Shown in pieces: positions 42,359 to 63,569 of a DNA stretch of 64,000 nucleotides. Every line of letters starts with the position of its first letter. Positions within the stretch are counted from its first letter, which is position 1. The translations under genes and the position numbers were made by a program. The stretch comes from Candidatus Sumerlaeia bacterium (GTDB lineage: Bacteria; Sumerlaeota; Sumerlaeia; SLMS01; JAHLLQ01): assembly GCA_019634695.1 (NCBI GenBank), contig JAHCAW010000010.1:22355-86354 (forward strand), read 5' to 3'. Below the pieces are notes generated by a model. The model saw only the letters and a list, made by a program, of their open reading frames with translations, did not search any database and was not told the DNA's origin.

Positions 42359-42371
42359 ACAGTCAGTCGCC

Positions 42372-43555: not shown

Positions 43556-43707
43556 ATGGCACAATCAGAAGCAGACCCCTCTGGGCTGATCGGCAAGAAG
43601 GCGCCCGCCTTCTCCCTCCTCGATCAGGCCGGGAGGATTCACAAACTATCCGACTTCAAGTCGGCAAGCGGGTGGTCCTGTTCGCGTAACCGAAGGATGG
43701 CGCGCCG
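43556..43707 (+). pseudogene. bcp: Decayed 5' fragment of a bcp peroxiredoxin gene (fragment A), ending at an attL-like junction
   Basis: The fragment reads MAQSEADPSGLIGKKAPAFSLLDQAGRIHKLSDFK. Relative to the intact copy it then has a 2-nt insertion (TC), after which GKRVVLFA is followed by TAA in place of Tyr, then PKD. Homology stops at GCGCCG (43702-43707). Confidence 0.7.
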
Positions 43708-43812
43708 AGTCTTGACTACACACATGAAGAAGACGAATGACAGTCTGTCTCCGCATGCAGGAAGGCCATGGATCGTGCTGCCGGGGATCCAGAACCGAGG
43801 ACTTGTGCCATC

Positions 43813-44655
43813 ATGACTCGTGATGCCGGGAACAGCCTCAACTATGACCTAATCGGCTTGTCGTACTCTGCGCGCCGATGTGCCGACCCACGGATCGTTG
43901 ACGCTCTGATATCGAACCTGCGCCTCGGAAAGGGATCCCTCGTAGCCGACATCGGCGCCGGTACCGGAAACTATGCGTGTGCCTTGGCCGACCTTGGTAT
44001 GCGGGTCAGTGCGGTGGAGCCGTCCAGCATCATGCGGCGTCAAAGCAGGGATCATGAGTTGGTGACTTGGTACGAGGGCGTGGCGGAGGAATTGCCGTTG
44101 GCAGGCGAGTCTCATGCTGGTGTGATTTGCGTTCTGGCCTATCATCATTTCAAATCAGGCAGGCAAGCCGTTCGCGAAATGAATCGCGTCTGTCCGCGGG
44201 GGATGATCGTCATCCTTGCTTGCGATCCGAGCCTCGCGGAGCAGACTTGGTGGTTGAATGAGTACTTCCCAGATGTATGGCAGCAGGCACGGTCCACATG
44301 CCCGACCGCCAAGACGATCCTTGATGATTTCGCGGCCGCTGGCCGTCCCGCCGTATCAATCCCGTTCCTCATACCCTTCGACCTGCAAGACTGCTTTGCC
44401 GCGGCCGGCTGGCGCAGACCAGCGATGTACCTCGACCCTCAGGTTCGTAGCTGCATCTCCAGCTTTGCTTGCCAGGAGCCCGAACTGCTCGCGATGGGAT
44501 TGGACCTGCTTCGGGCTGACTTGGAGAGTGGGAGATGGTATCAGAAGAATTCCCGCCTGGCGGCGCTGAATGAAATCGATTGGGGCTATCGACTGATCGT
44601 TTCTCATCCATCCGCTTCTGATCATAGCCGGGGTTGGAACCCGAATCCGCCGTGA
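43813..44655 (+). CDS. Class I SAM-dependent methyltransferase (Methyltransf_11-like)
   Basis: Motif I is LVADIGAGTGNYA, and the post-I acidic residue context is MRVSAVEPS. The ATG is at 43813. Confidence 0.7.
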   Translation: MTRDAGNSLNYDLIGLSYSARRCADPRIVDALISNLRLGKGSLVADIGAGTGNYACALADLGMRVSAVEPSSIMRRQSRDHELVTWYEGVAEELPLAGESHAGVICVLAYHHFKSGRQAVREMNRVCPRGMIVILACDPSLAEQTWWLNEYFPDVWQQARSTCPTAKTILDDFAAAGRPAVSIPFLIPFDLQDCFAAAGWRRPAMYLDPQVRSCISSFACQEPELLAMGLDLLRADLESGRWYQKNSRLAALNEIDWGYRLIVSHPSASDHSRGWNPNPP

Positions 44656-44767
44656 CCACCACTCACCTTCCGGACCCATGACTGGAATACCGTGTACGAC
44701 ACGGCGGGGAAAGGGGATGCGGGACGAAGACGGCGACGCCGCCTGAATCCAGATAGGGAGATCCACC

Positions 44768-44944
44768 ATGGCCAAGAAGACCTCCGAAGAAGCATCCTCC
44801 GAAATGCTCGGCAGGAAGGCGCCTGCCTTTTCACTCCCCGACCAGAACGGCAAGGTCCACAAGCTCTCGGAATACAAGGGCAAGTGGGTGGTCCTGTTCG
44901 CGTATCCGAAGGATGACACGCCGTCTTTTGGTCTTACACAGTAG
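44768..44944 (+). pseudogene. bcp: 5' fragment of bcp (fragment B, codons 1-52) fused to element-end sequence
   Basis: The fragment reads MAKKTSEEASSEMLGRKAPAFSLPDQNGKVHKLSEYKGKWVVLFAYPKDDTP, then diverges (SFGLTQ*). By my alignment, 40 of the first 52 residues match the intact copy. It is under 60 aa and so absent from the ORF track. Confidence 0.85.
44901..44944. other. attL of the 18.3-kb element (core ACGCCG at 44918-44923)
   Basis: bcp homology ends exactly after GATGAC-ACGCCG. The element arm TCTTTTGGTCTTACACA follows. Confidence 0.7.
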
Positions 44945-44984
44945 TCCGACTTACCACCCATAACGCCTGAAAGGACAAGCATTC

Positions 44985-45485
44985 ATGGCAAAAAACACCT
45001 CTGAAGAAACCCCCTCCGACATGATCGGCAAGAAGGCCCCGGCCTTCGCCCTGCCGGATCAAGACGGCAAGATTCACAAGCTCAGCGACTACAAGGGAAA
45101 GTGGTTGGTCTTGTTCGCGTACCCGAAAGATTTGACTCCCGGCTGCTCTGCTGAGAGCTGCGGCTTCAGGGACACCAACGCTGAGTTCGAGAAGCTTGGT
45201 GCAGTGGTCTTGGGCATCTCGATCCTCGACTCGAAGTCGAAGAAGAAGTTCGCCGAGAAGCTGGGCCTGAACTTTCCGCTGCTCGCCGATGAGGACATGA
45301 AGGTCCTGGAGGAGTACGGACTCTGGCAGGAGAAGTCGATGTACGGGAAGAAGTACATGGGCGTATCCCGCGAGACCTTCGTCATCAACCCTGAGGGCAA
45401 GTTCGCCATGCACTGGCCGAACGCCAAGGGCAGCGAGGCTCACTCGGCTGAAGTGCTGGCCTGGTTGAAGGAGAAGTCGGGCTGA
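44985..45485 (+). CDS. bcp: Peroxiredoxin Bcp/PrxQ, an intact copy carried just inside the element's left end
   Basis: The 166-aa product reads MAKNTSEETPSDMIGKKAPAFALPDQDGKIHKLSDYKGKWLVLFAYPKDLTPGCSAESCGFRD, with the peroxidatic and resolving Cys arranged as CxxxxC. Confidence 0.9.
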   Translation: MAKNTSEETPSDMIGKKAPAFALPDQDGKIHKLSDYKGKWLVLFAYPKDLTPGCSAESCGFRDTNAEFEKLGAVVLGISILDSKSKKKFAEKLGLNFPLLADEDMKVLEEYGLWQEKSMYGKKYMGVSRETFVINPEGKFAMHWPNAKGSEAHSAEVLAWLKEKSG

Positions 45486-45618
45486 GGAGCCGGGATTTCA
45501 TCCGCTTCATGCGTGGCAGAATGGAACGCAACACGGCATCCGGTATAGATAAGGAAAGGGCCAGAGTGCAGCCACCGCGCACCCCGGCCCTACAACATGA
45601 CGAGGAGGCACCCTCACC

Positions 45619-46629: not shown

Positions 46630-46713
46630 TCCCTTGCGGACCACTATGCCTAACAAGAGTATTTTCTTTGGGACCCAATGGTCGCCCTACGGCTTGTGTC
46701 CATCATCGGATTC

Positions 46714-47298
46714 CTAATCCAGTGGATCCACATCAGGGTGATCATCATGGTCCAGAGCCGCCACCAGATCCCATGACAAGATGTTGGCACTTCCTCTCAA
46801 TAGGACATCCCCCCGCCAGCGCAGATACCGAACCCTTTCATGGCAAAGCAGCGTCACGATGGCCGGGACATGCTCCACAGGTGCTGAAAGAATCACCCAA
46901 GGCGTTCCGCCATTTTTTAGCCCCTGTACCATCCCGACGCCGTGTGGTTTGCGATCATCGGATTCTTCTTCAGTCCGGGCAATGATGCCGCTGATGGTCC
47001 GTTGACCGCTGATGGTCACATCGATTGCAACGCCCCGGATGGGAAACCTTCTGACGGACGCTGGTGCCAACATTCTTCCGCAGATCCTGACGCCAAAACT
47101 CTCCCAGTAGGGCCGCTGCCACACTCGGCTGTAGTCCACGCCCAGGCCGACCTGGGGTTCCCAAGCATCGATCTGGATGTAGTAGTCCATGATCTCCGCC
47201 ACCACCGCCTTTCTTCTTTTCTTCGCCACGTTTGTCCTCCATGTGCTTGGGATGGGGCTTGCACCGCGAACCAAAGCCCTGTTTGATCCTTCTGACAT
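46714..47298 (-). CDS. Hypothetical protein
   Basis: The ATG at 47298 follows GAAAGGA, and the codon usage looks coding. No motif was recognised. The gene is divergent from the HTH gene. Confidence 0.4.
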   Translation of the reverse strand: MSEGSNRALVRGASPIPSTWRTNVAKKRRKAVVAEIMDYYIQIDAWEPQVGLGVDYSRVWQRPYWESFGVRICGRMLAPASVRRFPIRGVAIDVTISGQRTISGIIARTEEESDDRKPHGVGMVQGLKNGGTPWVILSAPVEHVPAIVTLLCHERVRYLRWRGDVLLRGSANILSWDLVAALDHDDHPDVDPLD

Positions 47299-47337
47299 GT
47301 CCTTTCTACCGGGTTTCTTCCAGTTCCTCACCCAGGA

Positions 47338-47556
47338 TTGACCAGAATGCCAGACCAAAGATGGCTCTCAGTGCCTGAAGCCGCCGAGTACCTCGGGATC
47401 AAGCCGGACACCGTGTACGAGTGGATAGGCAAGAAAGGCATGCCTGCCCATCGAGTGGGGAGGCTTTGGCGGCTGGATGTGGAAGAGATCGACGCTTGGG
47501 TCAAGTCTGGGAAGGCGGGTGCGCCAGATGCCCAAGCCGAAGGAGAGAGCCATTGA
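47338..47556 (+). CDS. Excisionase-family (HTH_17/MerR-like) DNA-binding protein
   Basis: The product contains WLSVPEAAEYLGIKPDTVYEWIGKKGMPAHRVGRLWRLDVEEIDAWV. The likely ATG is at 47347. Its stop overlaps the helicase start. Confidence 0.8.
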   Translation: MTRMPDQRWLSVPEAAEYLGIKPDTVYEWIGKKGMPAHRVGRLWRLDVEEIDAWVKSGKAGAPDAQAEGESH

Positions 47557-50500
47557 ACAGCAGGACACTCCTCTCCGGCATCAGGGACAACCATACCCGC
47601 GGCTGCGTGGGCGACTACCTTCGCGATCAGGTGCAGCCGGGGTGCCACATGTCCGTGGTTTCGGCCTTCTTCACGGTCTACGCCTACGACCTCATGAAGC
47701 ACGAGCTAGACGCCATTGGCCACATGGACTTCCTGTTCGGGGAACCCCGGTTCATCACGCGCCTGGACCCCGACAGAACGGAGAAGAAAGCCTTCATCAT
47801 CGACGCAAGGGGCCTTCGCCTTGCCAACGTCCTTCAGCAGAAGCGCGTCGCTCGTGAGTGCGCTGACTGGATCAGGGCGAAGGTGGATGTTCGCTCGGTC
47901 CGTCAGCTCAACTTCCTTCACGGAAAGATGTACCACGTCTCCCGGAACGGCGTAGACCGCGCCATCATGGGTTCCTCCAACTTCACCCCGGCGGGCCTTG
48001 GGCTCTCCTCCGATGGTGGGAACATAGAACTCAACCTCGTCGTGGACAGCGACCGTGATCGGCATGATCTGAAGGCTTGGTTCGATGACCTCTGGAACAG
48101 CAGCGAACTCACCAAAGATGTGAAAGACGACGTTCTTCAATACCTCGCACAGATCTACCAGAATCACAGCCCTGAGTTCATCTACTTCAAGACCCTTTAC
48201 GAAATCTTCAAGTCGTACCTGGATGGAGCCGACAAGACGGACCTCGACCTGGGGCGCACTACGCTCTTCGATACCGAGATTTGGAAGACTCTCTTCGAGT
48301 TTCAGAAAGATGGCGCGAAGGGCGCGATCAACAAAATCCTCCGCCATAATGGCTGCGTTGTGGCTGACTCCACGGGTCTTGGCAAAACATTCCTGGCCTT
48401 GGCCGTCATCAAGTACTTCGAGCTGAAGAATGAGCGGGTCTTGGTCCTTTGCCCCAAGAAGCTCCGTGGCAACTGGACCGTCTACCGAAGCAATGATGTC
48501 CTGAACCCCTTTGATAAGGACCGCTTCAGATTCGATGTTCTTTCCCACACAGACCTGAGCCGCGACTCCGGCTACAGTGGTGACATCAATCTGGAGACCC
48601 TGAACTGGGCCAACTACGACCTCGTCGTGATCGATGAATCGCACAATTTCCGGAACAACCTTCCCGGCAAGAAGGACGAAGACGGCAACGTCATTAGGAA
48701 GAGCCGATACATGCGGCTCATGGAAGACATCATCCAATCGGGCGTCAGGACGAAGGTTCTTCTCCTGTCAGCAACGCCGGTAAACAACGATCTCAAGGAC
48801 TTGCGAAACCAGCTCTACTTCATCTCCGCTGGTGAGGATGACTATTTCGCCAACTCTGGTATTCCAGACCTGAAGGAAACCCTGCGTAAGGCCCAAGGGC
48901 ACTTCACTGCATGGTCGAAGCTCAAACCAGAAGAACGCAGGGTCTCAGAGCTTCTCAGCCGACTTGGCAGCGACTTCTTCAAGATCCTCGATGGACTCAC
49001 CATCGCTCGCGCCAGGAAGCACGTTCAGAAGTACTACTCCCATGAGATGGAGCGTCTTGGCAAGTTCCCCAAGCGGCTCAAGCCTCAAACGGAGAGTCCC
49101 GACATCGACGCCAAGGGTCGCTTCCTTCCCTATGATCGGCTCAGTGAAGAGATTGACCATTACAAACTCTCACTTTTCAAGCCTTCCACCTTCCTCAGGC
49201 CTGATTTGCCAAAGGAAGTCATGGACGAGTATACACGCCGCGTCGGCAACTTCACCCAGGCGCAACGCGAAGACTTCCTCATCGGCATGATGAAGGTGAA
49301 CTTCCTCAAGCGCCTGGAAAGCTCCGTCTACTCGTTTGCTCTCACCATGGAGCGGACCATCGACAAGATCGAAAAGCTTGAAGCTCGGCTGGAAAAGTTC
49401 CTTCGCCTTCAGGAAGACTTCCCTGACCTTGATTTGTCCGAAGTTCATCCGGAGGACCTCGCTGGCGAAGAAGACGATGAGGTCCGCGATGCCCTGGAGG
49501 TCGGCAAGAAGCTGCGTTACAAGGTCGCCCATCTCAACGTGGCAAAGTGGCTCCGTGCCCTGCATGAAGACAAGCAGCAGCTCAACCTTCTGTACATTCA
49601 GGCAAAGGACGTCACCCCGGACAGAGACCTCAAGCTACAACGCCTCCGTGAAATCATCAGCGCAAAGGTCCGCAATCCCCCGATCAACCGTGATGGCAAG
49701 CCGAACCGGAAAATCCTCATCTTCACTGCGTTCGCAGACACCGCACGCTACCTTTACGAGCACCTCAGTGAGTGGGCCATGGACGAGCTTGGCATTCACT
49801 CTGCGCTCGTTGTGGGCGGCGGTGGATGCCAGACGACCTATACGCCAAAGGGCTACTCCAGACAGGAAGAATTCGACCGCATCCTTACCAACTTCTCCCC
49901 CATGGCCAAGAAGCGCGACAAGATCGCGTCCATGCCTCAGGAAGGCGAAATCGATCTCCTGATCGGCACAGACTGTATCTCCGAAGGTCAGAATCTTCAG
50001 GATTGCGACACAATTGTAAACGCCGACATACATTGGAACCCTGTTCGTATCATTCAAAGATTTGGAAGATGTGACAGAATTGGATCTCGAAATGAAGCCA
50101 TCCAGCTTATCAACTTCTGGCCCACGAAGAACCTGGACAACTACATCAACCTCAAGCACCGGGTCGAAGCCCGCATGGCCTTGGTGGACGTTTCGGCCAC
50201 ACAGGAAGACAACCTTCTCCAGCAGGAACTGGAGGACCTCATCACCGAAGACCTTCGGATACCGCGATCGTGTCAACTCAAGCGGGCTTCGCGATGAGGT
50301 CTTGGACTTGGAGGATCTCGACGAGACCATCAGTCTGACCGAGTTCAACCTTGATGACTTCCGGATCGAATTGCTGAAGTTCTTGGAGGCCAATCGGCAG
50401 GCCCTTGAGGATGCCCCCTTTGGCTTGTATACCGTGGTGCCTTCGCTCTCCGACTTGGTGACCACGATCCAACCGGGCGTCATCTACTGCCTCCGCCAAA

Positions 50501-50898
50501 AGGCGAAATCCGTGGATCACTCCTCAGGCGAGAGGATCAACCCGCTGCAACCCTTCTACCTGGTTTATGTCCACAACGATGGCAACGTGCGCTTGAACTT
50601 CGTCCACCCCAAGCAGATTCTGAACCTCTATCGCCAACTCTGCTCCGAAAAGACGCTGCCTTACGACGAACTGTGCGCCCTCTTCGATCAGGAAACCCAA
50701 GACGGGCGCGACATGAGCCATTACGACAAGATCCTTCAGCGCTGCATCGACGCTATCGCGGCCACCTTCCAGAAGCGCGTTTCCACCAGCCTTCAATCTG
50801 ATCGGGGTTTTCTGATTCCTGAGGAAGACGATCAGGTCGACAATGAAGAAGACTTCGAGCTGGTGACCTGGCTTGTGATCAAGGGGGCCCATCAATGA
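47553..50898 (+). CDS. PLD-nuclease domain plus SNF2-family helicase/translocase, interrupted by a frameshift near 50,250
   Basis: The TTG start at 47553 lies 5 nt after AAGGAGAG. A single HKD motif reads HGKMYH...GSSNFT (47919 onward). Helicase motifs are ADSTGLGKT, VIDESHNF, LLSATPVNN and QRFGRCDRIG. Frame 0 stops at 50297, and the conserved tail (YRDRVNSSGLRDEVLDLEDL... to 50898) lies in the +1 frame. Confidence 0.85.
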
Positions 50899-53800: not shown

Positions 53801-54812
53801 CCACATTCTGAAACTACTGAAACGTCTTGAGGAAGTGGGCACACATCTTGGACCTTTAGTAACAAGTCGTTTTTACAGAGGCGTTTTGACGGGGTTGAAC
53901 GAAGCCTTCGTAATCGACCAAGTCACCTATGAGCAGTTGGTCCGGGAGGATGCCAAGTCGTCAGAGGTGATCTACCCTTTCCTGCGTGGCAGGGATGTAA
54001 AGAGGTGGAGTGTCACTCAGCCAGAGCAGTGGCTTATCTTTACGCGAAGAGGCATCGACATTCGCCGCTATCCTGCAATTCATAAACATTTATCACAGTA
54101 CCGGGAGAAGCTGGAACCCAAGCCATCGAATTGGCCGAGTGGGAAGCCTTGGAATGGGCGCAAGACCGGAACTTACAAATGGTATGAGATTCAGGACAAC
54201 ATCGCGTATTGGGAGGAATTTGCTGAACCCAAAATCGTCTATCAAGACATCGCTCGGAGCTATGGCATGGCTTGGGATGAGAGCGGTGCGATGCTCGTCA
54301 ACACCTGTTATTTCATACCAGGTCAACGTCCATGGCTGCTCGGTGAGCTACTTTCTCCTGTGATTCGCTTTTGGGTCCAGAAGGTTCTCGGACACGATGA
54401 GGGTGGCTTCTTGCGCCTCTTCTCGGTTCATGTGGGCAAGTTCCCGATCGTTCCCCCCGAGCCGAAGCAGGCTGACTTGATGGATTCAATTGCCCGCATT
54501 CTGATTGAAGGAAACCGACATAAGGATCTGGAAGCGCGGGATACGATGATGCTCGGGTTCTACGAACAGATCCTAAACGCGCTCGTGTATGAACTCTACT
54601 TCACCGAAGACCTTCACCGCGGGGATCTCCATTTCTTCGATTTGGTAGAGAAGGCGACGATTCCCGATGTGACGGCCCTACCAGAGCAGAACCGAATCGC
54701 TGCCATGCGTGCAGCCTTTGAGCGTCTGTACGAACGCAGCCATCCACTTCAGGGAGCACTTCAGTCTCTGGAGAGCCTTGATGTTGTGCGGATGATTGAG
54801 GGGCGAACATGA
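50895..54812 (+). CDS. Eco57I/PglX-family gamma-class N6-adenine DNA methyltransferase with a TaqI_C-like specificity domain (1,305 aa)
   Basis: The start overlaps the helicase stop (ATGA). Motifs are GAFYTPR, VLDHACGSGAYL (motif I) and NPPY at 53355-53366. The C-terminal region KWYEIQDNIAYWEEFAEPKIVYQDI is typical of type IIG/PglX target-recognition modules. The N-terminal region of about 480 aa is unassigned. Confidence 0.9.
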   Translation: MSLEQRERIHEALNIFTTSSLLEASQGLFETLGYKSKRRPKRWNSAPSHFLNQYGQGEQPLNEKRALFDRWKAVEILFQLGDEEVRSALGYGEDLFGSAGEIDNKRIESYLFFAIQLEPKGEGLAYTRTELSNATRAVNALFPMPAMLLFKHGETISIAVINRRLHKRDASKDVMEKVTLIKDIATADPLRAHLEILSDLGIHALEDEFKFTNFAGLHAAWEKRLGTYALSERFYREVADWYFYALEKNQDIKFPRSIEEMADRTEEQQDEKKKQKSLFLIRLLTRLIFCWFLQEKRLIPRDMFRERIVKKLLKDASPASGTYYKAFLQNLFFATLNQEQDKRDWRKKYKGSRDGNVGITNLWRFADDLNDPAKLEAMLRDQVPFVNGGLFDCLDDRYTKEEALPDRFLDGFSERKDNTLHLPNALFFAKERTVDLSDVYHDKRRSREKLSGLIDILSRYKFTVEENTPLEEEIALDPELLGKVFENLLASYNDDTQTTARKALGAFYTPRSVVSYMVDEALCCFLATKVTSTSAAKVRQLIQTVPGEYDPHQHFSQDEINTLIQEIGKVRVLDHACGSGAYLMGALHRLVDLLQKLDPKNAAWKQDKLKAAQQLLDDRRKEGADEDEQRQLEERTQEIKRSFDEAFHELDYARKLYLIEDCIYGVDIQPVACQIAKLRFFISLIVDQKVKRKSANLGVRPMPNLETKIVAANALLPIDFPQLDLFSMGKVEDLRKDLLRIRHEHFDARTPQRKKRLREKDKSLRADIAKFLKESGLPSASANALAGWDPYDQSGFAPFFDPSWMFGFTQKDALFDVVLANPPYVRQEKIKDQKAALKPHYTQTYSGTADLYVYFYDRALQLLRPNGALSFITSNSFLSAAFAEGLRKTLVRETTIQSVIDFGETPVFTAITEPAILIASKASSKDNQVRALRWDEKLDPKDLKRTIDEEGFSLPQATLGSEIWKIEKPHILKLLKRLEEVGTHLGPLVTSRFYRGVLTGLNEAFVIDQVTYEQLVREDAKSSEVIYPFLRGRDVKRWSVTQPEQWLIFTRRGIDIRRYPAIHKHLSQYREKLEPKPSNWPSGKPWNGRKTGTYKWYEIQDNIAYWEEFAEPKIVYQDIARSYGMAWDESGAMLVNTCYFIPGQRPWLLGELLSPVIRFWVQKVLGHDEGGFLRLFSVHVGKFPIVPPEPKQADLMDSIARILIEGNRHKDLEARDTMMLGFYEQILNALVYELYFTEDLHRGDLHFFDLVEKATIPDVTALPEQNRIAAMRAAFERLYERSHPLQGALQSLESLDVVRMIEGRT

Positions 54813-56773
54813 GAATCTCCAAGATCACCGTCAATGACTTCCGAGCCTTCCCGCACGTGGCAACGTTTGATCTGACGGACGGAGCCAACTTGCTCGTCTA
54901 TGGCGAGAACGGCTCCGGGAAGTCATCTCTCTTTCAAGCTCTTCGTGAGTTTTTTCGAGCTGGCAGACAGCCGCCTCCTGCCTACTCTCAGTTCAAGAAC
55001 ATCTTCATCGCACCCGCGACCACTCCAACCGCTCCCGGAGACGGCCAGGTTTCGTTGGAGCTGATGGAAACAACGGGCTCTCCCGTGAAGAGGACGGTCA
55101 CCTGGGCTGAGGGCCGTCCAAGACCGCTGGATGATCCGACACTTTCGCGCTCGGACCGCGAACTGCTGGCAGACGCTGCGGCAAGATCTTCCTTTCTTGA
55201 GTACCGATCTCTTCTCAGGACCAACTTCGACCTCAAGACTCCGAACCAGCGACTCTTTGAGCTGGCAGTAAGTGTCCTTCTTGCCGATGTCCCTGCAACG
55301 TTACCTGGCAGAGGAAGAGTTCCTATCAAAACTCTCTGGAAGGCCCTCAATCAGGCCCCCCCTGGTCCCGGCGAACATTACAACACATCGCGCAAGAACC
55401 GTGTCGCCAATGCCGAACAAGAGTTCAACGTTGCCCTGAAAGGGATCCTCCCAGAGGTGCAGCAAGAGGCATCCAAGTATCTTGCCATGTTTGAAGGTGT
55501 GGGAATCGATCTCAAGATCGACTTCAATGGGCTACGTTTCGACCCCAGCAAACCACGTGACTGGAATCGACATTTCATAGGGCGTGAGCTGGATTTCAAA
55601 GTTTTGCTAAATGGTGAAGAGTTGTCGGAGTGGACAGAGTTCTTGAACGAGGCGCGGCTCTCTGCTCTTGCGCTGTCCTTGTACCTTGCAGGAGTGCGTC
55701 GAAGTGACTTTGGTACTTCGCCTGATCCATTGCGCCTGTTGGTTCTTGATGATGTGCTCATCGGTCTCGACCTCGGTAACAGAATCCCTGTTCTCAGGAT
55801 TCTTGAGCGCTACTTTCCCGACTACCAGGTCGTACTGCTGACTCATGACAGAGTGTGGTTTGAGATGGCACAAATCTCCTTTCAGGAGCCCGAGAACTGG
55901 ATCTCCTACGAAATGTACGCACGGGAAATGCGGGAGGGGGCAAAAATATTTGAAGCTCCCGTCATAAAGCCACCCATTGAGAAGATCAAAGAATTGGCGG
56001 GTCAGTATCTCCAGCTTGCCGAAAATGAACTGAATTCTGCCACGCCATCTCTGCGCACCGCCGCTTTTCATGCTCGTGTGGCTCTCGAAATCAAGCTGAA
56101 GTCATTCTGCGACAGGAAGGTACCCGTCCAGTTCAACATGAACCCAAGGTTGATTTCGGTGGACAATTTCATGGAAGCAGTTGAGGCGTTCCTGATCTCC
56201 ACAGGCCATGATGTCTTGGGGCTTTTTCATCTGCACCGAATCGAACTGTTCAAGAAGGGCGTACTGAATCCCTCTGCCCACTTTCATCCAGTCACTCTTT
56301 CTACTGACGAAGTGAAGGAGGCAATACGGGCAGTCAAGGAGCTTGAGCTACATAAGGAAACCACGAACTTCGCCCTGAAGGCGGAGCCGAAAACCCAGGC
56401 CGTTCCCACTGGGCATGACCCAACGGCTTGGACTCATGATGCTGCCTGTTGGGTGCGCGTTACCTTTGAAGTGGATCTGAGAAGATTCCTGAAAGACCGC
56501 GGAGGCAGGCTTCCCTTTACATACGTCCCGCCCCTCTGGCCGCTCAGTGAACTATGGGAAAGCGCCAAGGCGCGGATGAATGAACTGAATCCGACAGCCG
56601 CGCCTCCGGTGATTGCAGCGATCGAAGGCCACCGAAGCGTTCTTCTTGATGATTGGAGTTATGCACGGGTTTCGGGATTGAGCCTGAGCGACATCCAGAA
56701 CGCATGGGCTGCGCTGAAGGATCCCAGCTCCACGCCCACCAATGTAAAGACCATCCTGGCGACGTTCAACTGA
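54809..56773 (+). CDS. SMC/RecF/ABC-like ATPase (654 aa) with an uncharacterised helical C-terminal half
   Basis: The start overlaps the methyltransferase stop (ATGA). Walker A is GENGSGKSS, the signature-like motif is NEARLSALALSLYLA, Walker B is LLVLDDVLIGLD and the H-loop is LLTHD. Confidence 0.8.
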   Translation: MRISKITVNDFRAFPHVATFDLTDGANLLVYGENGSGKSSLFQALREFFRAGRQPPPAYSQFKNIFIAPATTPTAPGDGQVSLELMETTGSPVKRTVTWAEGRPRPLDDPTLSRSDRELLADAAARSSFLEYRSLLRTNFDLKTPNQRLFELAVSVLLADVPATLPGRGRVPIKTLWKALNQAPPGPGEHYNTSRKNRVANAEQEFNVALKGILPEVQQEASKYLAMFEGVGIDLKIDFNGLRFDPSKPRDWNRHFIGRELDFKVLLNGEELSEWTEFLNEARLSALALSLYLAGVRRSDFGTSPDPLRLLVLDDVLIGLDLGNRIPVLRILERYFPDYQVVLLTHDRVWFEMAQISFQEPENWISYEMYAREMREGAKIFEAPVIKPPIEKIKELAGQYLQLAENELNSATPSLRTAAFHARVALEIKLKSFCDRKVPVQFNMNPRLISVDNFMEAVEAFLISTGHDVLGLFHLHRIELFKKGVLNPSAHFHPVTLSTDEVKEAIRAVKELELHKETTNFALKAEPKTQAVPTGHDPTAWTHDAACWVRVTFEVDLRRFLKDRGGRLPFTYVPPLWPLSELWESAKARMNELNPTAAPPVIAAIEGHRSVLLDDWSYARVSGLSLSDIQNAWAALKDPSSTPTNVKTILATFN

Positions 56774-57618
56774 TGCGAAAAATGGCAGACCCCCTGAAGA
56801 TCGACCTCAGCTTCGGTCCCGCCACCTTGGACCTCAACACCCTGCGTCGTTGGTTCAAGGAAGCCCCTGTGCGCACGGTGGCCTACCGATTCCTGAAGGT
56901 CTTCAACGATCATGGGGTCAAGAATACACAAATCCAGCGACTGGTGCCTGAGGTAACCCTCGACAGAGTCACTGATCCGATAGCGCTCCTGCCCGCGCTG
57001 ACGAACGACGTGCTGACCAGGACGGCCAAGACCCTCGGGATTGAGCGTGCGTGGCTGGATGGCGTCCAGGAGCGCATGTACCGCCACCACGGCAGCTACC
57101 AAAATCCAGCGGCCTTTTTCGACGTCGTGAGGGGGCTGGAAAAGCCCTTCGTCGGGCACGCGTTGAGGGCGTACTGCATGGATCCGAATCTGGATATCCG
57201 AAAAGGTCGGCCGCAGCCGATTGTGTTGGTCTTCGCCGAAAAGATTTGTGACTGGGATGATGATGGTGAACTTCTGAGATTCATCCCCTTCACCGAGGAG
57301 TGGGACTGGGGCTACCCGAAGAGCCGCCTCCAGTTGAAGGCCACCATCCGCGCCTGCCATGACTACCTGGGCATCGCGGTCGTTCCCCTCTACCAGGTCG
57401 ACAGGAAGACCCTGAAGGACCTCTCCGAGGGCGAAGCCGTGCCACCTGACGTTCCCTGGAGCCGCGACGTCTCCCTGGAGGACTACGTCTTCTCACCAGA
57501 CGAAAGCCACGTCTCCAAGGAGTCCGAAGAGCTGGAGGCGGTCTTTTCTTGGATGAAGAGGATGAAGATGGAGGAACTGGCGAAAGCATCCGCGCATGAA
57601 GAGGACGGCTCACCATGA
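56773..57618 (+). CDS. Orphan protein (281 aa), no recognisable domain
   Basis: It overlaps the ATPase stop (TGATG) and the next gene's start (ATGA). The product reads MRKMADPLKIDLSFGPATLDLNTLRRWFKE... and has an acidic C-terminus. Confidence 0.55.
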   Translation: MRKMADPLKIDLSFGPATLDLNTLRRWFKEAPVRTVAYRFLKVFNDHGVKNTQIQRLVPEVTLDRVTDPIALLPALTNDVLTRTAKTLGIERAWLDGVQERMYRHHGSYQNPAAFFDVVRGLEKPFVGHALRAYCMDPNLDIRKGRPQPIVLVFAEKICDWDDDGELLRFIPFTEEWDWGYPKSRLQLKATIRACHDYLGIAVVPLYQVDRKTLKDLSEGEAVPPDVPWSRDVSLEDYVFSPDESHVSKESEELEAVFSWMKRMKMEELAKASAHEEDGSP

Positions 57619-59675
57619 CCAAGCTACATGTCGAAGTCAAACAAGACCACATCCAGAAGCTGACGTCTTCCGATCCCGTGCGAGCGATCGGTGAGCTGGT
57701 GTGGAACGCGCTGGATGCCGACGCCAGCCGTGTTGATGTGGAGTTTGAAATCGACTACGCCGGGGGCATTGAAGAGGTACGTGTCATCGACAACGGCAGC
57801 GGCATGACGATCGATGACGCCAGGTCAGGGTTCAGCAGCCTGGGTGGCTCATGGAAAGGACACTCCACCTACACGAAGCAGGGTAGACGCATCCTCCATG
57901 GCAAGGAAGGGAAGGGGCGGTTCAAGGCCTTTGCGCTTGGCTCTCCTGTTGAATGGACGACGCGTTTCCAATCCAACGGCCAGGTGAAGTCGTTCCGAAT
58001 CTTGGGCGAACTACCACACCTTCACGAGTTCGACCTGAGTGATCCCGCGCCTGCGGACATCGACAAGACAGGCACCGAAGTCAGAATCCTCAACGTCGCG
58101 GAAGGGCGAAGTGATCTGACAGGAGAGAGTGCGCGGCAGAAGCTGATTCAGCTCCTTGCGCCATACCTCGCGAAGTATCCAGGGATCGACATCTTCTACG
58201 GCGGAACCCGTCTCGATCTTGCCGAGGTGACCGAAGAGTATGAGCCTCTGGATCTCGAACCCGTAACGCTCGATGGCGGCACAACGATCGAGGCTGAACT
58301 GTCGGTGAGGATCTGGACGTTTCCGAACGACCGGAAGATCGCCCTCTGCGACGCGAAGGGCTTCACCTTGGCTGAGGCAACTTCGGGAAGAGGTGTGCGT
58401 GCGCCTGGGTTCAACTTCACCGCATACCTTGCGAGCGACTACTTCGTTGGCTTCCACGAGGCGGGCACCCTCCAGGTCAGCGAGATGTTCAGTGAGGATG
58501 AAGGGATTTGGAAGCTCATAGGCGCAGCCAGAAAGCGACTGAGCGGGTACTTCAGGGAGCGTCTTGCTGCACGAACTGCTGGGCTGGTTGACGAATGGCG
58601 AGCCCAGAAGATCTACCCCTTCAAGGATGAGCCCGCTGACGATGTAGAGAAGGCCGAGCGTCAGGTCTTCGACATCATGGCGCTCAACGTGAACCGGTAC
58701 CTTCCTGACTTCGACGAAATGGAGGTGGAAGCCAAGGGCCTCATTTTCGAGTGCCTGAGGGTTGCCATCGACAGTGGCGAAGAAACCACCAGAAGGCTAC
58801 TGAGCAAGATCACAAAGATTCCCAAGAAGACGCAGGAAGATCTGCTGGAGTTGATCGAGAAGACGGATCTGATTTCTGTCATCGAAGCGACCAAGGAGGT
58901 CTCGTCCCGGTTGGAGTTCCTGGCGGGATTGAGAACAATTCTTTTTGAACCTGAGGTCCGAGATAAGACCAAGGAGCGATCCCAGCTTCACCGCCTCTTA
59001 GCAAAGAACATCTGGGTTTTCGGCGAGCACTTCAACCTCACGGTGGACGATCAGAGCTTGACCGAGGTCCTGAAGCGTCACGAGGAGCTTCTGGGACGAG
59101 AACCCTCTGGCAAGGAAATCAATCGAGCCGATGGACGCCGTGGCATTGTGGATCTGATGCTCTCAGGTTTGGTTTCACCTTCAGATCTGGAACGACGGGA
59201 GCATCTTGTGGTGGAACTGAAGCGCCCGAGCGTGAAGCTGAAGAAGGCGGAGTACGACCAGATCCTCGACTACGCTCTTGCTGTGGTAAAGGACCCGGCA
59301 TTCGCGGGTACGGAGACCACATGGCACTTCTGGCTGATCGGTGACGAAGTTGATGAGTATGTGGAGAGGCGTCGCACCGAAGCCAACCGCCCCAAGGGAG
59401 CGATCTACATGGCGGACTCACCGAAGGTGGTTGTCTGGGCGAAGAACTGGGGAGAGATCATTCATGGATGCGAGACCAGGCTGCGGTTCTTCAAGGACAG
59501 GCTCAAGTACAGCCCGACCAAGGAACAGGGTATGGCCCACCTCTCCAAGGAGTACGCCAAGTACGTACCCCAAGTGGTCCATGACCTGGCTGGTAACGAT
59601 GCGGGACTGGAGGATGTGTCAGGCAGCGGGGACATTGGTGATAATGAGGAACCGGTGGAGCCTAAAGCCCCTTGA
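57615..59675 (+). CDS. GHKL (MORC/paraMORC-like, HATPase_c_3-type) ATPase fused to a C-terminal PD-(D/E)xK nuclease-like domain
   Basis: The Bergerat N-box is IGELVWNALDA and the G1 box is IDNGSGM (57789 onward), followed by HGKEGKGRF. The C-terminal motif is GRRGIVDLML...HLVVELKRPSVKL...QILDY (59151-59222), a D...ExK...Q pattern like DUF4263/Shedu-type nucleases. Confidence 0.75.
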   Translation: MTKLHVEVKQDHIQKLTSSDPVRAIGELVWNALDADASRVDVEFEIDYAGGIEEVRVIDNGSGMTIDDARSGFSSLGGSWKGHSTYTKQGRRILHGKEGKGRFKAFALGSPVEWTTRFQSNGQVKSFRILGELPHLHEFDLSDPAPADIDKTGTEVRILNVAEGRSDLTGESARQKLIQLLAPYLAKYPGIDIFYGGTRLDLAEVTEEYEPLDLEPVTLDGGTTIEAELSVRIWTFPNDRKIALCDAKGFTLAEATSGRGVRAPGFNFTAYLASDYFVGFHEAGTLQVSEMFSEDEGIWKLIGAARKRLSGYFRERLAARTAGLVDEWRAQKIYPFKDEPADDVEKAERQVFDIMALNVNRYLPDFDEMEVEAKGLIFECLRVAIDSGEETTRRLLSKITKIPKKTQEDLLELIEKTDLISVIEATKEVSSRLEFLAGLRTILFEPEVRDKTKERSQLHRLLAKNIWVFGEHFNLTVDDQSLTEVLKRHEELLGREPSGKEINRADGRRGIVDLMLSGLVSPSDLERREHLVVELKRPSVKLKKAEYDQILDYALAVVKDPAFAGTETTWHFWLIGDEVDEYVERRRTEANRPKGAIYMADSPKVVVWAKNWGEIIHGCETRLRFFKDRLKYSPTKEQGMAHLSKEYAKYVPQVVHDLAGNDAGLEDVSGSGDIGDNEEPVEPKAP

Positions 59676-59684
59676 ATCACGTGC

Positions 59685-60026
59685 TCAAACTGACCTGTGT
59701 TCCACGCATCGAGTTCCAACAAACCCAGGGGAAATGATCATCGTCGTACCTAGTTGACCGCAAACCTCGCAGATGCGTTCTGATCGCTTCATGGCTTCTT
59801 CTCGAATGGCGCGGGCCGTGGGGTGGCACTGGTCAGAGAAGTAGATCCTGATCGATCCGAGCTTCTCCTTCGATCTGGTGATGGCGGGTGCGTTGCTGTC
59901 GCGGCAACGCGCCAGCATCTCTGCGAACAAATCGTTCCATCCAGACCTGAATTCGACCCCCGGCCACCGCGGGTTGAAGAGGTAAAGATTTGCAGTCACA
60001 AGTTGTTCGAGTTCTTCGGACGTCAT
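59685..60026 (-). CDS. Small hypothetical protein with a C-terminal Cys pair (zinc-ribbon-like)
   Basis: The 113-aa product contains KEKLGSIRIYF...CEVCG...RCVEH. Its function is unknown. Confidence 0.45.
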   Translation of the reverse strand: MTSEELEQLVTANLYLFNPRWPGVEFRSGWNDLFAEMLARCRDSNAPAITRSKEKLGSIRIYFSDQCHPTARAIREEAMKRSERICEVCGQLGTTMIISPGFVGTRCVEHRSV

Positions 60027-60029
60027 AGC

Positions 60030-60377
60030 TCAGTCCACGTTCATGCTACAGCGAACACTGGTGCAGTTGCGGTCGAACCAGCCCCTGCGCATGACCACCG
60101 CCGACACGAAAGGGTAGCTGGGAGCAACGGGCTCCTCGGTGGGATCATGCACTTCCAGGAGCTTTCCATCATTTGAGATGAGGGCGATCTCGATCTGTGG
60201 CGGCAACGCTGCGATGTCGATGAAGTGGTACCCCACCGAAGGCCAGAAAAAGAGGACACCATGATCCTCGTTCACGTCGTAACTGAGGGCCACCTCCACC
60301 AGGAGGTGACCGGGATAGGCTACCACACGTGCAGGTGCGCCGCCGATGATGACCTCGTGAACACCTGTCCTCTTCAT
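60030..60377 (-). CDS. DUF192-like small protein
   Basis: The product contains HGVLFFWPSVGYHFIDIAALPPQIEIALISNDGKLLEVHD...AVVMRRGWFDRN, which resembles the DUF192 pattern, but the match is weak. It overlaps the integrase stop by 4 nt. Confidence 0.35.
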   Translation of the reverse strand: MKRTGVHEVIIGGAPARVVAYPGHLLVEVALSYDVNEDHGVLFFWPSVGYHFIDIAALPPQIEIALISNDGKLLEVHDPTEEPVAPSYPFVSAVVMRRGWFDRNCTSVRCSMNVD

Positions 60378-61357
60378 AGTACGATCCTCTTGGCTGCATT
60401 TTCCGCAAACACGGTTCCTGCCTGTATGTATGTGCGCAGAATGCGGAGGGATCGATGGCCGGTGCTTCTGGCGATTTCCCGCTCGGACGCCCCAGCCCTC
60501 GCGGCAGCGGTGCAGAATCCAGAGCGCAACGAATGGCCGGAGAATACTTCAGGATCCAATCCAGTAAGACTTGCGCGATCCTTGATAATGCTTGCGACGG
60601 CGTTTCCACTGAGCGCCTTTCCCGTCGGTGTGCCTCCACGACGAAAAGACTGAAATATCGGTCCATCAGTGATTCTTGCGGAGTTCAGGTAAGCAGCCAG
60701 AGCGAGCACTGGACAAGTCTCGGCTTTGTTGCCCATGGGGATCCCAACTTCCCTCCCGTGACCATCAGCGTCTGTTTTGGATTTTCTTATCAGGATCCGA
60801 AGGCCTTCTTCCTCGATATGTACATCACCAACACAAAGTGCAGCCAACTCCGACCTTCTGAATCCGCCCAGAAATCCCACCAGCAAGAGCGCTCGATCTC
60901 TGCGGCCCTTGGGGCTGTTGTCACAGGTGCTGACCAGTCCTCGCAGTTCCGCTACGCCGACAGCCTTTTTCCTTTTCGGCATCGTACCCTTGGTTCGCCG
61001 AATGCCTTTCAGTACATCCCGCACGATTTGGCTCTTTGTCGGCGTTTCCTGTCCCGCGGTCTTGTGGGCTTGGGAGATGGTCGCCAATCGCCTTTCGATC
61101 GTGGCGATGCTGACGCCACGTTCGGCAAGGTCGGTGATGTAGATGGCAAGCGTCGGTCCGTCTGAAGGCAGGCTTGCTCGTCCAGCTTGATCACACCAGG
61201 ACACAAAAAGTCTCCAGTCCGTCTTGTAGGCTCTCTTGGTATTAGCCGCTCTGGACTCCCCAGCATACTCACGTGCACGCTGGACAATCCGCAGAGACGA
61301 CTCCGTCTGCGGGATGGCGGCTGGGAGACTTTCCTGAGGAGCTTCGTCAGAATTCAT
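60374..61357 (-). CDS. Tyrosine recombinase / phage-type integrase
   Basis: An N-terminal SAM-like core-binding domain (AANTKRAYKTDWRLFVSWC) is followed by the catalytic residue contexts GFRRSELAAL, HSLRSGF and HRSLRILRTYI. Confidence 0.85.
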   Translation of the reverse strand: MNSDEAPQESLPAAIPQTESSLRIVQRAREYAGESRAANTKRAYKTDWRLFVSWCDQAGRASLPSDGPTLAIYITDLAERGVSIATIERRLATISQAHKTAGQETPTKSQIVRDVLKGIRRTKGTMPKRKKAVGVAELRGLVSTCDNSPKGRRDRALLLVGFLGGFRRSELAALCVGDVHIEEEGLRILIRKSKTDADGHGREVGIPMGNKAETCPVLALAAYLNSARITDGPIFQSFRRGGTPTGKALSGNAVASIIKDRASLTGLDPEVFSGHSLRSGFCTAAARAGASEREIARSTGHRSLRILRTYIQAGTVFAENAAKRIVL

Positions 61358-61375
61358 GGCCTGGCCTCCGATTAC

Positions 61376-61400
61376 CTGTGATAAGGTTCCATTATCACAG
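61376..61400. promoter_or_regulatory. Perfect 9-bp inverted repeat CTGTGATAA-N7-TTATCACAG between the two recombinase genes
   Basis: It lies 13 nt downstream of the serine recombinase stop (61413) and 19 nt upstream of the tyrosine recombinase ATG (61357). It could be an operator, a terminator stem or a recombination site. Confidence 0.4.
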
Positions 61401-61412
61401 CTTATTATTCAT

Positions 61413-63158
61413 CTAATTACTCGGCTTCCTTGGGCGCGGCTTGCTCGCCCTCTGCTTCGGCATGATTGGCTGGCTCTGTTCCTTCCAGCCTGACCAGGCA
61501 TCCCAGAATTTCCCTGGTTGGCGTGGTAGCATGTGACCGTCACCATTCTTGAAAAAGACGCTCGCAAATCCATGATCCGGATCGCAGTCGACTTCAATCC
61601 GATCGATCAAACGCTCGCACGCTGCGCGGAGCCTTGCACGATCCTCATCTGTTTCGCGCATGCCCGCGGCGAGTTCCTTGAGGTGCCTGCCCTGGTCGGT
61701 TATTGAAGGAGAGAGCTTTCGCTGAGCAGCTTGCTGTTCGAGGACCAGCAGTTCATCGCGAAAAGCCTGAAGCTGGTCCTCCCGATTGGTGATCGAGTCC
61801 ATGAGAAGGTTCCAGCGGCGGTCATTCTGCTCCGTGAGGATACGCGCTCTTGCACGCTCGATCTCGTCCTCGGCGGCGCGGATCTCGTCCTGGAGCGTAG
61901 AGATTCGCGCAGTCTCTTCCTCCGGTGGTTGGGCCTGAGGCATGAGCAGGTTGGGATCGAAGTCTTGAGCGATGTATTGAAGAACGTGTTCCTCAAAATC
62001 GGCTACCCTCCAGAACCGACCATTCGAGCAAGCTTTCGCAGCCCGGCGACGTCTATGGCAGTAGTAGTACCTGTAATGCCAGCGGGCTTCTGGAGCGTTT
62101 CCACCGATGTGCATCGCTCCTCCGCACTGGGCGCACTTCATCAAGCCGATGAACAGGTTGGGGACCAGCCGTCGCCTTCTTCCTCCACCGGTTTTCGGAG
62201 CATTCCTGATCCTCTGCTGAAGGAGTAGCCAGCGGCCCTTGCTGATGACGGCTGGGTAGTAGTCTTCGATCGGCTCGGGAGTCTCGCCATCAACCTTACG
62301 ATTGAAGACGAAGGCACCGTATAGCGCGGGATGAGTGAGAGTAAATTTGACCGAGGAGTCGGACCAGCCGTGGACGCTCTTCATGCCTCCATACACGCCT
62401 TGAAAAGCTGGGACGCCCGCCTTGTTGAGCCGCTTGGCGATGCCGGTCAGGCCAACGCGAGGGAACTCTTCCACAACCACGCCGTCCCCATCCGTTCGAT
62501 TGCCGAGACTCCAGTCCACCATCTTGAGAACCCAGGGGGCCCGTTCCGGATGAAGGTGGCGGGTCCCACTGATGAGCCGGGTGCCTTTTCTCACCACATC
62601 ACGGACCTCGATCCAGCCGGGGACTCTCGTCGTGGCCGTCTCGCCGCTCGCGATGGCTTGGACTTTGGCCTTCCAGTTGTTTCGTGCTCGTCGGGCCTTG
62701 ATCTCACTTTCCTCATGGGCGCGTTGCATCTCCGAAATGAGGCCATGGAGGTCCCAGGGCGACTTCTTGAATCTGTCCCTGGTATAGACTTCTGCCCTGA
62801 CGTGAGAGCCGAGGTCATCCCTCACCACGGCGATTGCGATGGAGGCCTTCACGAGCTGGCTCACGATCTCCAGTGCATCGATTGGCGTCTCGCGGGAAAG
62901 ACGATCAATACTCTCTACCACCAGGACGGTGTCCTTAGGAATCGCTCCGGCTTTGACCTGTGCCAGCAACACACCGAGCTTTCCGCTCTTCACATGGTCG
63001 CCGCGGTACGCTGAAAGCCCCTGATCAACGATCTCTTCAAGCAGCACCAAGCCCTCCTGCTCGCAGTATCGGCGGGCGACGTCTACCTGACGCTCTTGCG
63101 AACTTCCCAGTTTCTGCCGTTTCGAGGAGTAGCGGGTGTAGCTGATGGCGTGCTTCAT
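61413..63158 (-). CDS. Large serine recombinase (integrase)
   Basis: The ATG at 63158 gives MKHAISYTRYSSKRQ, which contains the catalytic Ser. The resolvase domain (VVESIDRLSR), a recombinase domain, a zinc ribbon (CAQCGG...YYYCHRRR) and a coiled coil follow. The gene sits 64 bp from attR. Confidence 0.9.
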   Translation of the reverse strand: MKHAISYTRYSSKRQKLGSSQERQVDVARRYCEQEGLVLLEEIVDQGLSAYRGDHVKSGKLGVLLAQVKAGAIPKDTVLVVESIDRLSRETPIDALEIVSQLVKASIAIAVVRDDLGSHVRAEVYTRDRFKKSPWDLHGLISEMQRAHEESEIKARRARNNWKAKVQAIASGETATTRVPGWIEVRDVVRKGTRLISGTRHLHPERAPWVLKMVDWSLGNRTDGDGVVVEEFPRVGLTGIAKRLNKAGVPAFQGVYGGMKSVHGWSDSSVKFTLTHPALYGAFVFNRKVDGETPEPIEDYYPAVISKGRWLLLQQRIRNAPKTGGGRRRRLVPNLFIGLMKCAQCGGAMHIGGNAPEARWHYRYYYCHRRRRAAKACSNGRFWRVADFEEHVLQYIAQDFDPNLLMPQAQPPEEETARISTLQDEIRAAEDEIERARARILTEQNDRRWNLLMDSITNREDQLQAFRDELLVLEQQAAQRKLSPSITDQGRHLKELAAGMRETDEDRARLRAACERLIDRIEVDCDPDHGFASVFFKNGDGHMLPRQPGKFWDAWSGWKEQSQPIMPKQRASKPRPRKPSN

Positions 63159-63196
63159 CGTGGGTCCATCCCGCCGAGGAACCTGCATGGAGCCGT

Positions 63197-63240
63197 ATTA
63201 TGTGTAAAGGCAAATCAAGGCACGCCGGGCTGCAGCGCTC
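63197..63240. other. attR of the 18.3-kb element (core ACGCCG at 63222-63227)
   Basis: The element arm TGTGTAAAGGCAAATCAAGGC is followed by ACGCCG-GGCTGCAGCGCT, which encodes TPGCSA and resumes bcp in frame. Confidence 0.7.
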
Positions 63241-63569
63241 AGAGTTGCGGTTTCCGGGATACGGGCGTCGAGTTCGCAAAGCTCAACGCCGTGGTGCTCG
63301 GTATCTCAATTCTCGACTCCGCCTCGAAGAAGAAGTTCGCGGACAAGCTCGGGCTCAACTTCCCGTTGCTTGCCGACGAGGAGCACGCCGTCTTGCACAA
63401 GTATGGACTGTGGAAGGAGAAGTCCCTGTACGGCAAGAAATACATGGGCGTCAGCCGCGAAACGTTCCTGATCGATCCCGCCGGCAGGATTGCGATGCAC
63501 TGGCCGAAGGCGAAAGGAAGCGAGGACCATTCGGCTGAAGTTCTCGAGTGGCTCAAGGAACACGTTTGA
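63222..63569 (+). pseudogene. bcp: 3' fragment of bcp (fragment D, from the TPGC active site to the stop)
   Basis: The fragment reads TPGCSAQSCGFRDTGVEFAKLNAVVLGISILDSASKKKFADKLGLNFPLLADEEH...EVLEWLKEHV and is collinear with residues 51-166 of the intact copy. No start codon or N-terminus is attached. Confidence 0.85.

Follow-up and report, generated by a model that had tools for sequence, protein, structure and literature searches.

We report that a locus in a metagenome-assembled genome (MAG) of Candidatus Sumerlaeia, analysed in a stretch of 64,000 nucleotides (the window) within a 102,764-bp contig, is best explained as a hot spot where a small family of integrative elements, apparently moved by a large serine recombinase (LSR), inserts into the bcp gene of Sumerlaeota, a reading to which we assign a probability of about 0.8. 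The window holds four pieces of bcp, designated A to D from left to right, and the two halves of one copy, B and D, are separated by an 18.3-kb element, E2 (44920-63221), which brings an intact bcp, C, of its own. The G+C content is 66-70% in the host part of the window (1-42 kb) and 53-60% from ~43.5 kb to the window end. Related loci compared with the window are referred to by their labels (L001 and so on), and feature coordinates are collected in the table below.

Exactly four bcp segments were returned when the window was searched by tblastn with the intact copy: A (43565-43707, in two frames), B (44768-44923), C itself and D (63222-63560). The E-values, from 3e-10 to 2e-111, exclude chance similarity, and the number and positions of the pieces given in a preliminary description of this DNA are thus confirmed. 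C corresponds to MBX3728497.1, a thioredoxin-dependent thiol peroxidase according to NCBI, and its translation predicts a BCP/PrxQ protein in which T-P-G-C supplies the peroxidatic Cys and the resolving Cys follows five residues later (TPGCSAESC; motif region ..DLTPGCSAESCGF..). B and C are 77% identical, D and C 80.5%, and bcp copies within one stack are in general 70-89% identical to each other, which excludes recent duplication. Piece A matches intact bcp at residues 6-37 and 38-52 in two different frames, and its alignment with B agrees with the earlier account of a 5' fragment disabled by a 2-nt insertion (CAAG-TC-GGCAAG, ~43661-43662), which shifts the frame, and by the replacement of TAT by TAA at 43687-43689. 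The fragment breaks off at the crossover position, with GC (43702-43703) where the other sites carry AC, and is ~79-81% identical to the in-frame fragment 1 of L043.

That E2 split the B+D copy, as had been proposed, is borne out, B and D being two halves of one gene, and the break does hit the active-site codons, its exact place being the AC of the codon for Thr in T-P-G-C. The two halves had also been said to join without gap or overlap, which needs correction: both contain ACGCCG, and the full shared core is CACGCCG (44917-44923 and 63221-63227), with B terminating in ..GATGA-CACGCCG-TCTTTTGGTCTTACACA and D preceded by TGTGTAAAGGCAAATCAAGG-CACGCCG-GGCTGC. Plain concatenation yields ..DDTPTPGC.., with T-P doubled, and removal of one core copy gives a clean open reading frame (ORF) of 166 aa. 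The arms of E2 are imperfect inverted repeats of 21 bp on each side of AC (16 of 24 positions symmetric), and scanning both strands of the window with the right-arm consensus returned four sites, namely the true arm at 63201, reverse complements at 43724 (after A) and 44940 (after B), and one off-target. Inside the left junction the stub ORF of B ends at a TAG (44942-44944) and C starts after 61 bp in the orientation of the split gene; at the other end, the NCBI protein for D (MBX3728509.1) reads through the arm.

Serial integration is seen directly in two loci from different samples, L042 and L043, because they form, as read from their alignment, an empty/occupied pair in which the target, a bcp copy, is itself preceded by an older scar. 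Both were found through a homologue of the window methyltransferase (79% identical), and they share a common order in which an A-type junction (an in-frame stub and an arm homologous to that of A) is followed by the methyltransferase, a degenerate junction, two cargo genes and a further bcp preceded by a leader of its own. Over 2749 bp they are 99.6% identical, with divergence setting in precisely behind ..GGATTCAAC / ..CCGAAGGATTCAAC, L042 continuing with TCCAGGCTGC.. (intact bcp) and L043 with GCCGGGCTTTGTCTTTACGCACG.. (arm, leader and a new full bcp); this comparison of the L042 attB with the L043 attL places strand exchange at AC. The earlier suggestion that the bcp of one element becomes the landing pad of the next is supported by this pair, and a comparison with related loci that lack the insertion, which had also been suggested, is consistent with it, bcp being uninterrupted in L042 where L043 is occupied and in L041, which holds a native copy with GAC GAC ACG CCG GGC TGC at the site (GACGACACGCCGGGCTGC). 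The left end of L043 comprises two stubs and a relic. The ~70-bp leaders of these stubs (384-453 and 2520-2589) are homologous to each other and unlike the usual element leader, and the duplicated leader-plus-stub stretch (217 nt) is ~81% identical, which suggests that an older element had picked up its bcp along with upstream DNA of the native type.

The same insertion point is found in five other metagenomic or MAG loci, whose recombinases are 33-86% identical to the window LSR. Recombinases adjoining a bcp 3' part that starts at TPGC are present in L001 (CAYTRP010000078.1, 86%), L019 (35%) and L020 (WGMQ01000044.1, 33%), each with the right arm followed by C-AC-GCC at the junction, and at least eight of the 120 best database matches to the bcp 3' part begin with a translated right arm (..CVK.. 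or ..VTL..) that runs on into TPGC, each of them an independent right junction. At the left ends, the arrangement of stub, arm and full bcp is seen in L039/L040, L021/L022, L043, L044 and the P0166 contig, and the preliminary view that every element brings an intact bcp next to its left arm agrees with what is found in the window, L021, L039, L043 and the P0166 contig. At the left end of L039/L040, from a Sumerlaeia MAG, the Hexapep gene of the host (70% identity with window 40869-41453) is followed by a single native 5' stub, an arm near-identical to that of E2, a leader and then a full-length bcp with 87% identity to C, after which a sister of E2 follows (Rep-like protein 81% and helicase ~90% identical). 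WGMQ01000044.1 (L021 and L020) begins with two stubs, each with arm and leader, ahead of a full bcp, and ~30 kb on it shows recombinase, right arm, 3' part and host genes; at least three rounds are counted there, because the first stub has an element-type leader and the contig begins inside that stub. The P0166 contig and L044 have one stub and then a full bcp copy. Taken as they stand in the assembled loci, these alignments establish the site, the arms, the crossover position, the place and orientation of the replacement gene, and the reuse of its copy.

The Thr codon of TPGC is ACT in each of the six intact bcp copies located behind an arm (window 45135-45140; L021 594; L039 10151; L042 8714; L043 2953; L044 541) and ACG in the native L041 bcp and in all recombined 3' arms. 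Absolute self-immunity of the element copy through the ACT codon was considered and rejected, the L042 copy with ACT CCA being the very one occupied in L043.

From its family, its position and the architecture of the site, we infer that the LSR encoded at the right end of E2 is the catalyst of integration. The gene begins 13 bp from the right arm, and its product has the Resolvase (E = 1.4e-15), Recombinase (E = 1.1e-10) and Zn_ribbon_recom (E = 1.4e-11) domains of Pfam, with a catalytic motif Y17-x-R19-x-S21-S22-x-R24-Q25 that is invariant in four family members. Against the PDB, the single sequence gave no match, and a family profile matched the A118 integrase (4kis, E = 1.1e-7) and the phiC31 and TP901-1 integrases. 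The predicted att-site architecture of 21-2-21 bp with inverted-repeat arms is that of a serine integrase. An exhaustive profile search of 1.84 billion representative proteins placed the known bcp-targeting recombinases in the top five clusters at 50% identity, below which the scores merge into the general LSR background. Judged by these comparisons, the family has few members but is old, its branches sharing 30-39% identity.

These observations suggest the following model. The excised element would carry an attP of ~44 bp, made up of a 21-bp arm, AC and a second 21-bp arm, the arms being imperfect inverted repeats, and attB would be the best-conserved part of bcp, ..CCG AAG GAy nnn ACn CCn GGn TGC.. 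(..P-K-D-x-T-P-G-C..; divided after AC). Strand exchange at the AC of the Thr codon, two codons ahead of the peroxidatic Cys, would leave a 52-codon 5' stub, soon stopped in the left arm, and a promoterless 3' part. The bcp of the element itself, lying ~40-60 bp inside the left arm, equipped with a ribosome-binding site and running in the direction of the split gene, would probably be read from the native promoter, so that the lost function is replaced. As the carried copy has the same attB, a later element could land in it in turn, each round adding a stub-plus-arm unit of ~215 bp on the left. In the window, E2 would then be the youngest and structurally complete layer and B+D the copy that it split, and the degenerate junction described below and the A junction with its methyltransferase would be relics of at least two earlier rounds.

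The layers to the left of E2 are probably more numerous than had been thought. The preliminary description assigned the methyltransferase and the B+D copy to a single earlier element, E1; however, in the 72 bp before B, the bcp 5'-end bases ACGACACGGCG are followed at the right spacing by a distal arm half and a leader. The similarity of this segment (44696-44767) to the arm units L021 f1 and L043 f2 was reached by 0 of 300 shuffles, its counterpart lies at L043 1640-1716, and nine stub-arm-leader units, that after A included, are all collinear on alignment. We regard it as a fairly probable third junction, and the left side of the window is accordingly read as at least three junctions, at ~43702, ~44701 and 44918. 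Because the degenerate junction separates them, the methyltransferase and the B+D copy would belong to different layers. Of the Russian-doll nesting originally proposed, the serial reuse of carried bcp copies is retained on the strength of L042 and L043, and the single E1 layer is not supported. The layer formed by A, its arm and the methyltransferase is 79% identical at the nucleotide level to L042 and L043, where a methyltransferase homologue of the same identity occupies the corresponding place behind an A-type junction. The layer is an ancient remnant in which no live element can be recognised, and we read it as predating the split of the window lineage from that of L042 and L043.

Further left, between the Hexapep homologue and A, the window contains genes for a metallophosphoesterase with a twin-arginine translocation signal and for a PhnB-like protein (41474-43504; G+C 0.62-0.67), in contrast to L039, where the bcp stub directly follows the Hexapep gene. 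These two genes may belong to the host or stem from an even earlier insertion.

The fate of the older element bodies is to be sought to the right of D, of which the window shows only 430 bp (G+C 0.57; GC3, the G+C content at third codon positions, 0.66 versus 0.78-0.87 in host genes), weakly favouring a continuation of foreign DNA beyond D. The pairing of D with B or with A was not separated by half-profiles against 96 full-length bcp proteins (r = 0.48-0.58 for every pairing), GC3 of the bcp pieces had no discriminating power, and alignment of the sequences downstream of the bcp copies was uninformative. Two related loci point both ways on nesting. In L001, a second right junction follows the first at a distance of ~0.8 kb, with only a DUF1016 relic and no recombinase between them and with the outer 3' part internally deleted; WGMQ01000044.1 has at least two left scars and one visible right junction before host genes such as putA and pgk, ~10 kb of the contig lying outside view.

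Most likely, what remains of the older layers are partly deleted pieces and not a nested E1 that is still intact. We put at roughly even odds that the older bodies disappeared through deletion, or through recombination between an inner attL and an outer attR, compact left scars staying behind, and that D with its flank is the rest of an older layer or chromosome. The left units measure only ~215 bp and persist in several loci, the window and L043 each have a bcp stub cut to ~10-25 nt before a decayed arm, and both the excess of left scars in WGMQ01000044.1 and the outer layer of L001 fit such losses; against them stand the foreign-DNA composition of the right flank of D and the lack of any attL-attR mispairing event among the loci compared. 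The stubs left behind are presumably harmless. Strict nesting, in which E1 continues to the right of D with a recombinase of its own and ends past 64,000 at a right arm and the 3' counterpart of A, every 5' fragment being matched by a single 3' fragment, appears doubtful by comparison. It expects an arm and then GCCGGGCTGC on the contig past MBX3728510, and it can draw on the low G+C of the 430 bp beyond D, unlike host genes, and on the second right junction of L001 with its bcp 3' relic. Yet the outer layer of L001 lacks a recombinase and its relic is internally deleted, A is a pseudogene in an old layer, no third bcp protein of the 102,764-bp contig is among the 120 best bcp matches, and WGMQ01000044.1 shows fewer right junctions than left scars in the part in view.

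With regard to the enzyme, E2 also encodes a tyrosine recombinase, which together with two small ORFs forms a conserved core in the same order in L001 and L019. That this protein, and not the LSR, performs integration is very improbable. It is kept next to the LSR in all four loci where the region is visible, and it is the better conserved of the two; but attP and the L042 attB share little beyond AC at the crossover, short inverted-repeat arms around a 2-bp centre fit a serine integrase and not a tyrosine integrase with its 6-8-bp overlap region, and the right arm is abutted by the LSR gene. Between window 59685-61357 and L019 5428-7097 (L001 3320-4989), the tyrosine recombinase and the two small ORFs have ~62%, 68% and 58% aa identity, and the LSR has 35%. 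The 113-aa ORF has a C-terminal CxxC...C..H pattern.

Several points weigh against integration by the LSR into successive bcp copies as outlined above. The LSR, attP and excision steps are read from sequence alone; transcription of the replacement bcp from the native promoter is deduced from geometry only; the junction at 44696-44767 is degenerate; the HTH_17 protein and the conserved 113-aa and 115-aa ORFs are only candidates for a directionality factor; a tyrosine recombinase is conserved beside the LSR as well; and, as the window ends at 64,000, the fate of older element bodies right of D is a guess. The window moreover comes from a MAG contig, and repeated bcp copies can mislead assemblers. 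The ~80% identity of these copies and the start of the WGMQ contig inside a stub speak for a chimera joined through them, but we think such a chimera highly improbable, the junctions being specific arm sequences rather than bcp-to-bcp joins and the same architecture recurring in six independent assemblies (NCBI, JGI and Logan; different samples). Tandem duplication and decay of bcp without site-specific integration, suggested by several co-oriented copies within 2 kb, deserves almost no credence, since all breaks fall on one dinucleotide with homologous arms behind them, the copies are 77-81% identical and not near-identical, L042 and L043 form an empty/occupied pair, and a recombinase stands at the right junction in four loci.

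Table. Features of the bcp locus in the window, with strand and basis of assignment.
Feature	Position	Strand	Evidence or remark
A, decayed bcp 5' fragment, codons 1-52	43556..43707	+	tblastn; alignment with B
Left-arm (P') relic of oldest layer, GCCGAGTCTTGACTACACACA	43704..43724	+	column-for-column alignment with other left arms; same arm in L042 and L043
Class I S-adenosylmethionine-dependent methyltransferase, oldest-layer cargo	43768..44655	+	MBX3728495.1, called from 43813; Pfam Methyltransf_11 E = 3.7e-14
Probable degenerate third junction: bcp 5'-end bases ACGACACGGCG, decayed left arm, leader and ribosome-binding site of B	44696..44767	+	shuffle test
B, bcp codons 1-52, left half of E2-split copy, attL B-arm	44768..44923	+	crossover AC 44918-44919
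Left arm (P') of E2, GCCGTCTTTTGGTCTTACACA	44920..44940	+	near-identical arm in L039
C, intact bcp of E2, 166 aa	44985..45485	+	Pfam AhpC-TSA E = 1.6e-39; MBX3728497.1
Rep-like protein, 336 aa	45619..46629	+	Pfam REP_ORF2-G2P E = 6.4e-6, under curated cut-off
HTH_17 (excisionase/AlpA-like) small protein	47338..47556	+	Pfam HTH_17 E = 7.6e-17
HKD (PLD) and Snf2 helicase	47553..50898	+	PADLOC HKD+Snf2 E = 1.9e-116
Eco57I/type IIG-like N6-adenine methyltransferase, 1305 aa	50895..54812	+	Pfam and PADLOC scans
SMC/AAA ATPase	54809..56773	+	cargo
321-aa protein	56653..57618	+	cargo
HATPase_c_3 protein	57615..59675	+	cargo
Two small ORFs (113 aa, 115 aa) and tyrosine recombinase (60374-61357)	59685..61357	-	conserved element core
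LSR, putative integrase	61413..63188	-	591-aa ORF; NCBI MBX3728508.1, 581 aa
Right arm (P) of E2, TGTGTAAAGGCAAATCAAGGC, with crossover AC (63222-63223)	63201..63223	+	kept in L001, L019 and L020
D, bcp 3' part, TPGC to stop, right half of split copy	63222..63569	+	tblastn; MBX3728509.1
C-terminus of P-type cation ATPase, running off the window	63623..64000	-	composition closer to elements than host

The cargo of E2 looks like a defence system. The Rep-like protein encoded after the replacement bcp has weak matches to REP_ORF2-G2P and to PHROG replication initiators and is 81% identical in aa sequence to its L039 counterpart (L039 10635-11648), and the excised element may replicate. The HTH_17 gene, also present in L039 and the P0166 contig, encodes a candidate regulator or directionality factor. 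Relative to its 1113-aa L039 orthologue, the HKD-Snf2 helicase of E2 changes frame at 50260-50285 (residues 1-910 in one frame, 903-1111 in another) and is either a pseudogene or the product of an assembly error. Comparison of E2 (47553-59675) with its L039 sister (12558-20431) gives ~90% aa identity for the helicase and 35% for the adjoining Eco57I-like methyltransferase, and the methyltransferase specificity module seems to have been swapped within an otherwise conserved defence-like set (HKD-Snf2, IIG-like methyltransferase, SMC-like ATPase, a protein of unknown type and HATPase_c_3). In family-profile scans of the window proteins, the 113-aa and 115-aa core ORFs and the 321-aa protein had no family match; scans against Pfam, PHROGs and PADLOC found no phage structural, packaging or lysis genes in 44.9-63.2 kb, and IMG/VR contained no matches to the junctions or arms, its serine recombinases having no bcp nearby.

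Across the family, cargo is highly variable. The WGMQ01000044.1 element carries a czcCBA-type RND efflux operon beside its recombinase module (L020 1-6196) and, at its other end (L021), a type ISP restriction enzyme, a WD40 protein and an HTH-M78 peptidase pair. Elsewhere in the window, G+C drops to ~0.60 at 33000-35000, inside an ORF of 2044 aa (30834-36968) surrounded by host DNA of 68%.

The closest known parallel is provided by the Tn6283/SE-6283-like elements of Vibrio, which insert site-specifically in bcp and carry a bcp homologue thought to compensate (PMC5991714, PMC9345347). They resemble E2 in using bcp as both target and cargo and in their variable cargo, and tandem copies are possible for them (PMC5991714, PMC9345347). 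They differ in their core, which is intA-tfp-intB-CDS4 with tyrosine recombinases (PMC9345347) and in E2 consists of the LSR, one tyrosine recombinase and two small ORFs; in their sites, which have 6-bp footprints, C/C' end motifs and an attB without inverted repeat instead of inverted-repeat arms around a 2-bp crossover; and in their hosts, Gammaproteobacteria rather than Sumerlaeota. E2 thus shares the strategy of these elements without belonging to them, and in the Tn6283/SE-6283 literature we found no report of a bcp-stub ladder or of reuse of an element's own copy. The recA-mobile elements of Vibrio cholerae likewise disrupt a host gene and bring their own copy, with a target and machinery that differ from those of E2, as far as the discussion in PMC5991714, through which they are compared here, describes them. 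Islands in tRNA, tmRNA and dusA genes restore the split target, and their displaced fragments mark the ends and can pile up (Islander, PMC4383910); these use tyrosine integrases and restore only a gene end through attP/attB identity, whereas E2 supplies a whole gene with its own ribosome-binding site. Our literature search turned up no publication describing serine-recombinase elements within bcp, and none on mobile DNA from Sumerlaeota.

In domain order (resolvase, recombinase domain, zinc ribbon), the LSR is like the A118, phiC31, TP901-1 and Bxb1 integrases. Phage-type large serine integrases use short attP and attB sites with a 2-bp crossover and insert inside genes; their sequence relationship to the LSR is only remote, E2 has no phage genes, and we know of no phage of the A118, phiC31, TP901-1 or Bxb1 type that brings a replacement for the gene it splits. 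Staphylococcal cassette chromosome elements (SCC, including SCCmec) also employ a serine recombinase, at rlmH (orfX) of staphylococci, where the site is regenerated each time and elements accumulate at one locus. Their site lies at the 3' end of rlmH and leaves the gene intact, their arrays are tandem and not placed in an element-carried copy, and to our knowledge they carry no replacement gene.

We also consider, as a speculative and rather unlikely extension, that the carried bcp does more than compensate and is a portable landing pad, forming an open-ended platform for LSR elements that nest in each other's bcp and on which recombination between attL and attR of different layers swaps or sheds defence cargo, one working bcp being kept under the native promoter. 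If this were true, the stub ladder would be a readable record of integration and cargo-swap events.

Overall, the elements described here would represent a second family, unrelated in mechanism, to have arrived by convergence at bcp as target and as cargo, and bcp thereby becomes a model for asking what favours certain genes as landing sites. Recombinases only 30-39% identical that nevertheless share one target offer a natural set of attP and attB sites that may be useful for work on serine integrase site specification. The stub ladders, together with a natural empty/occupied pair, allow the order of integration to be read from the DNA itself, in elements that bring variable, defence-like cargo into a poorly studied phylum.

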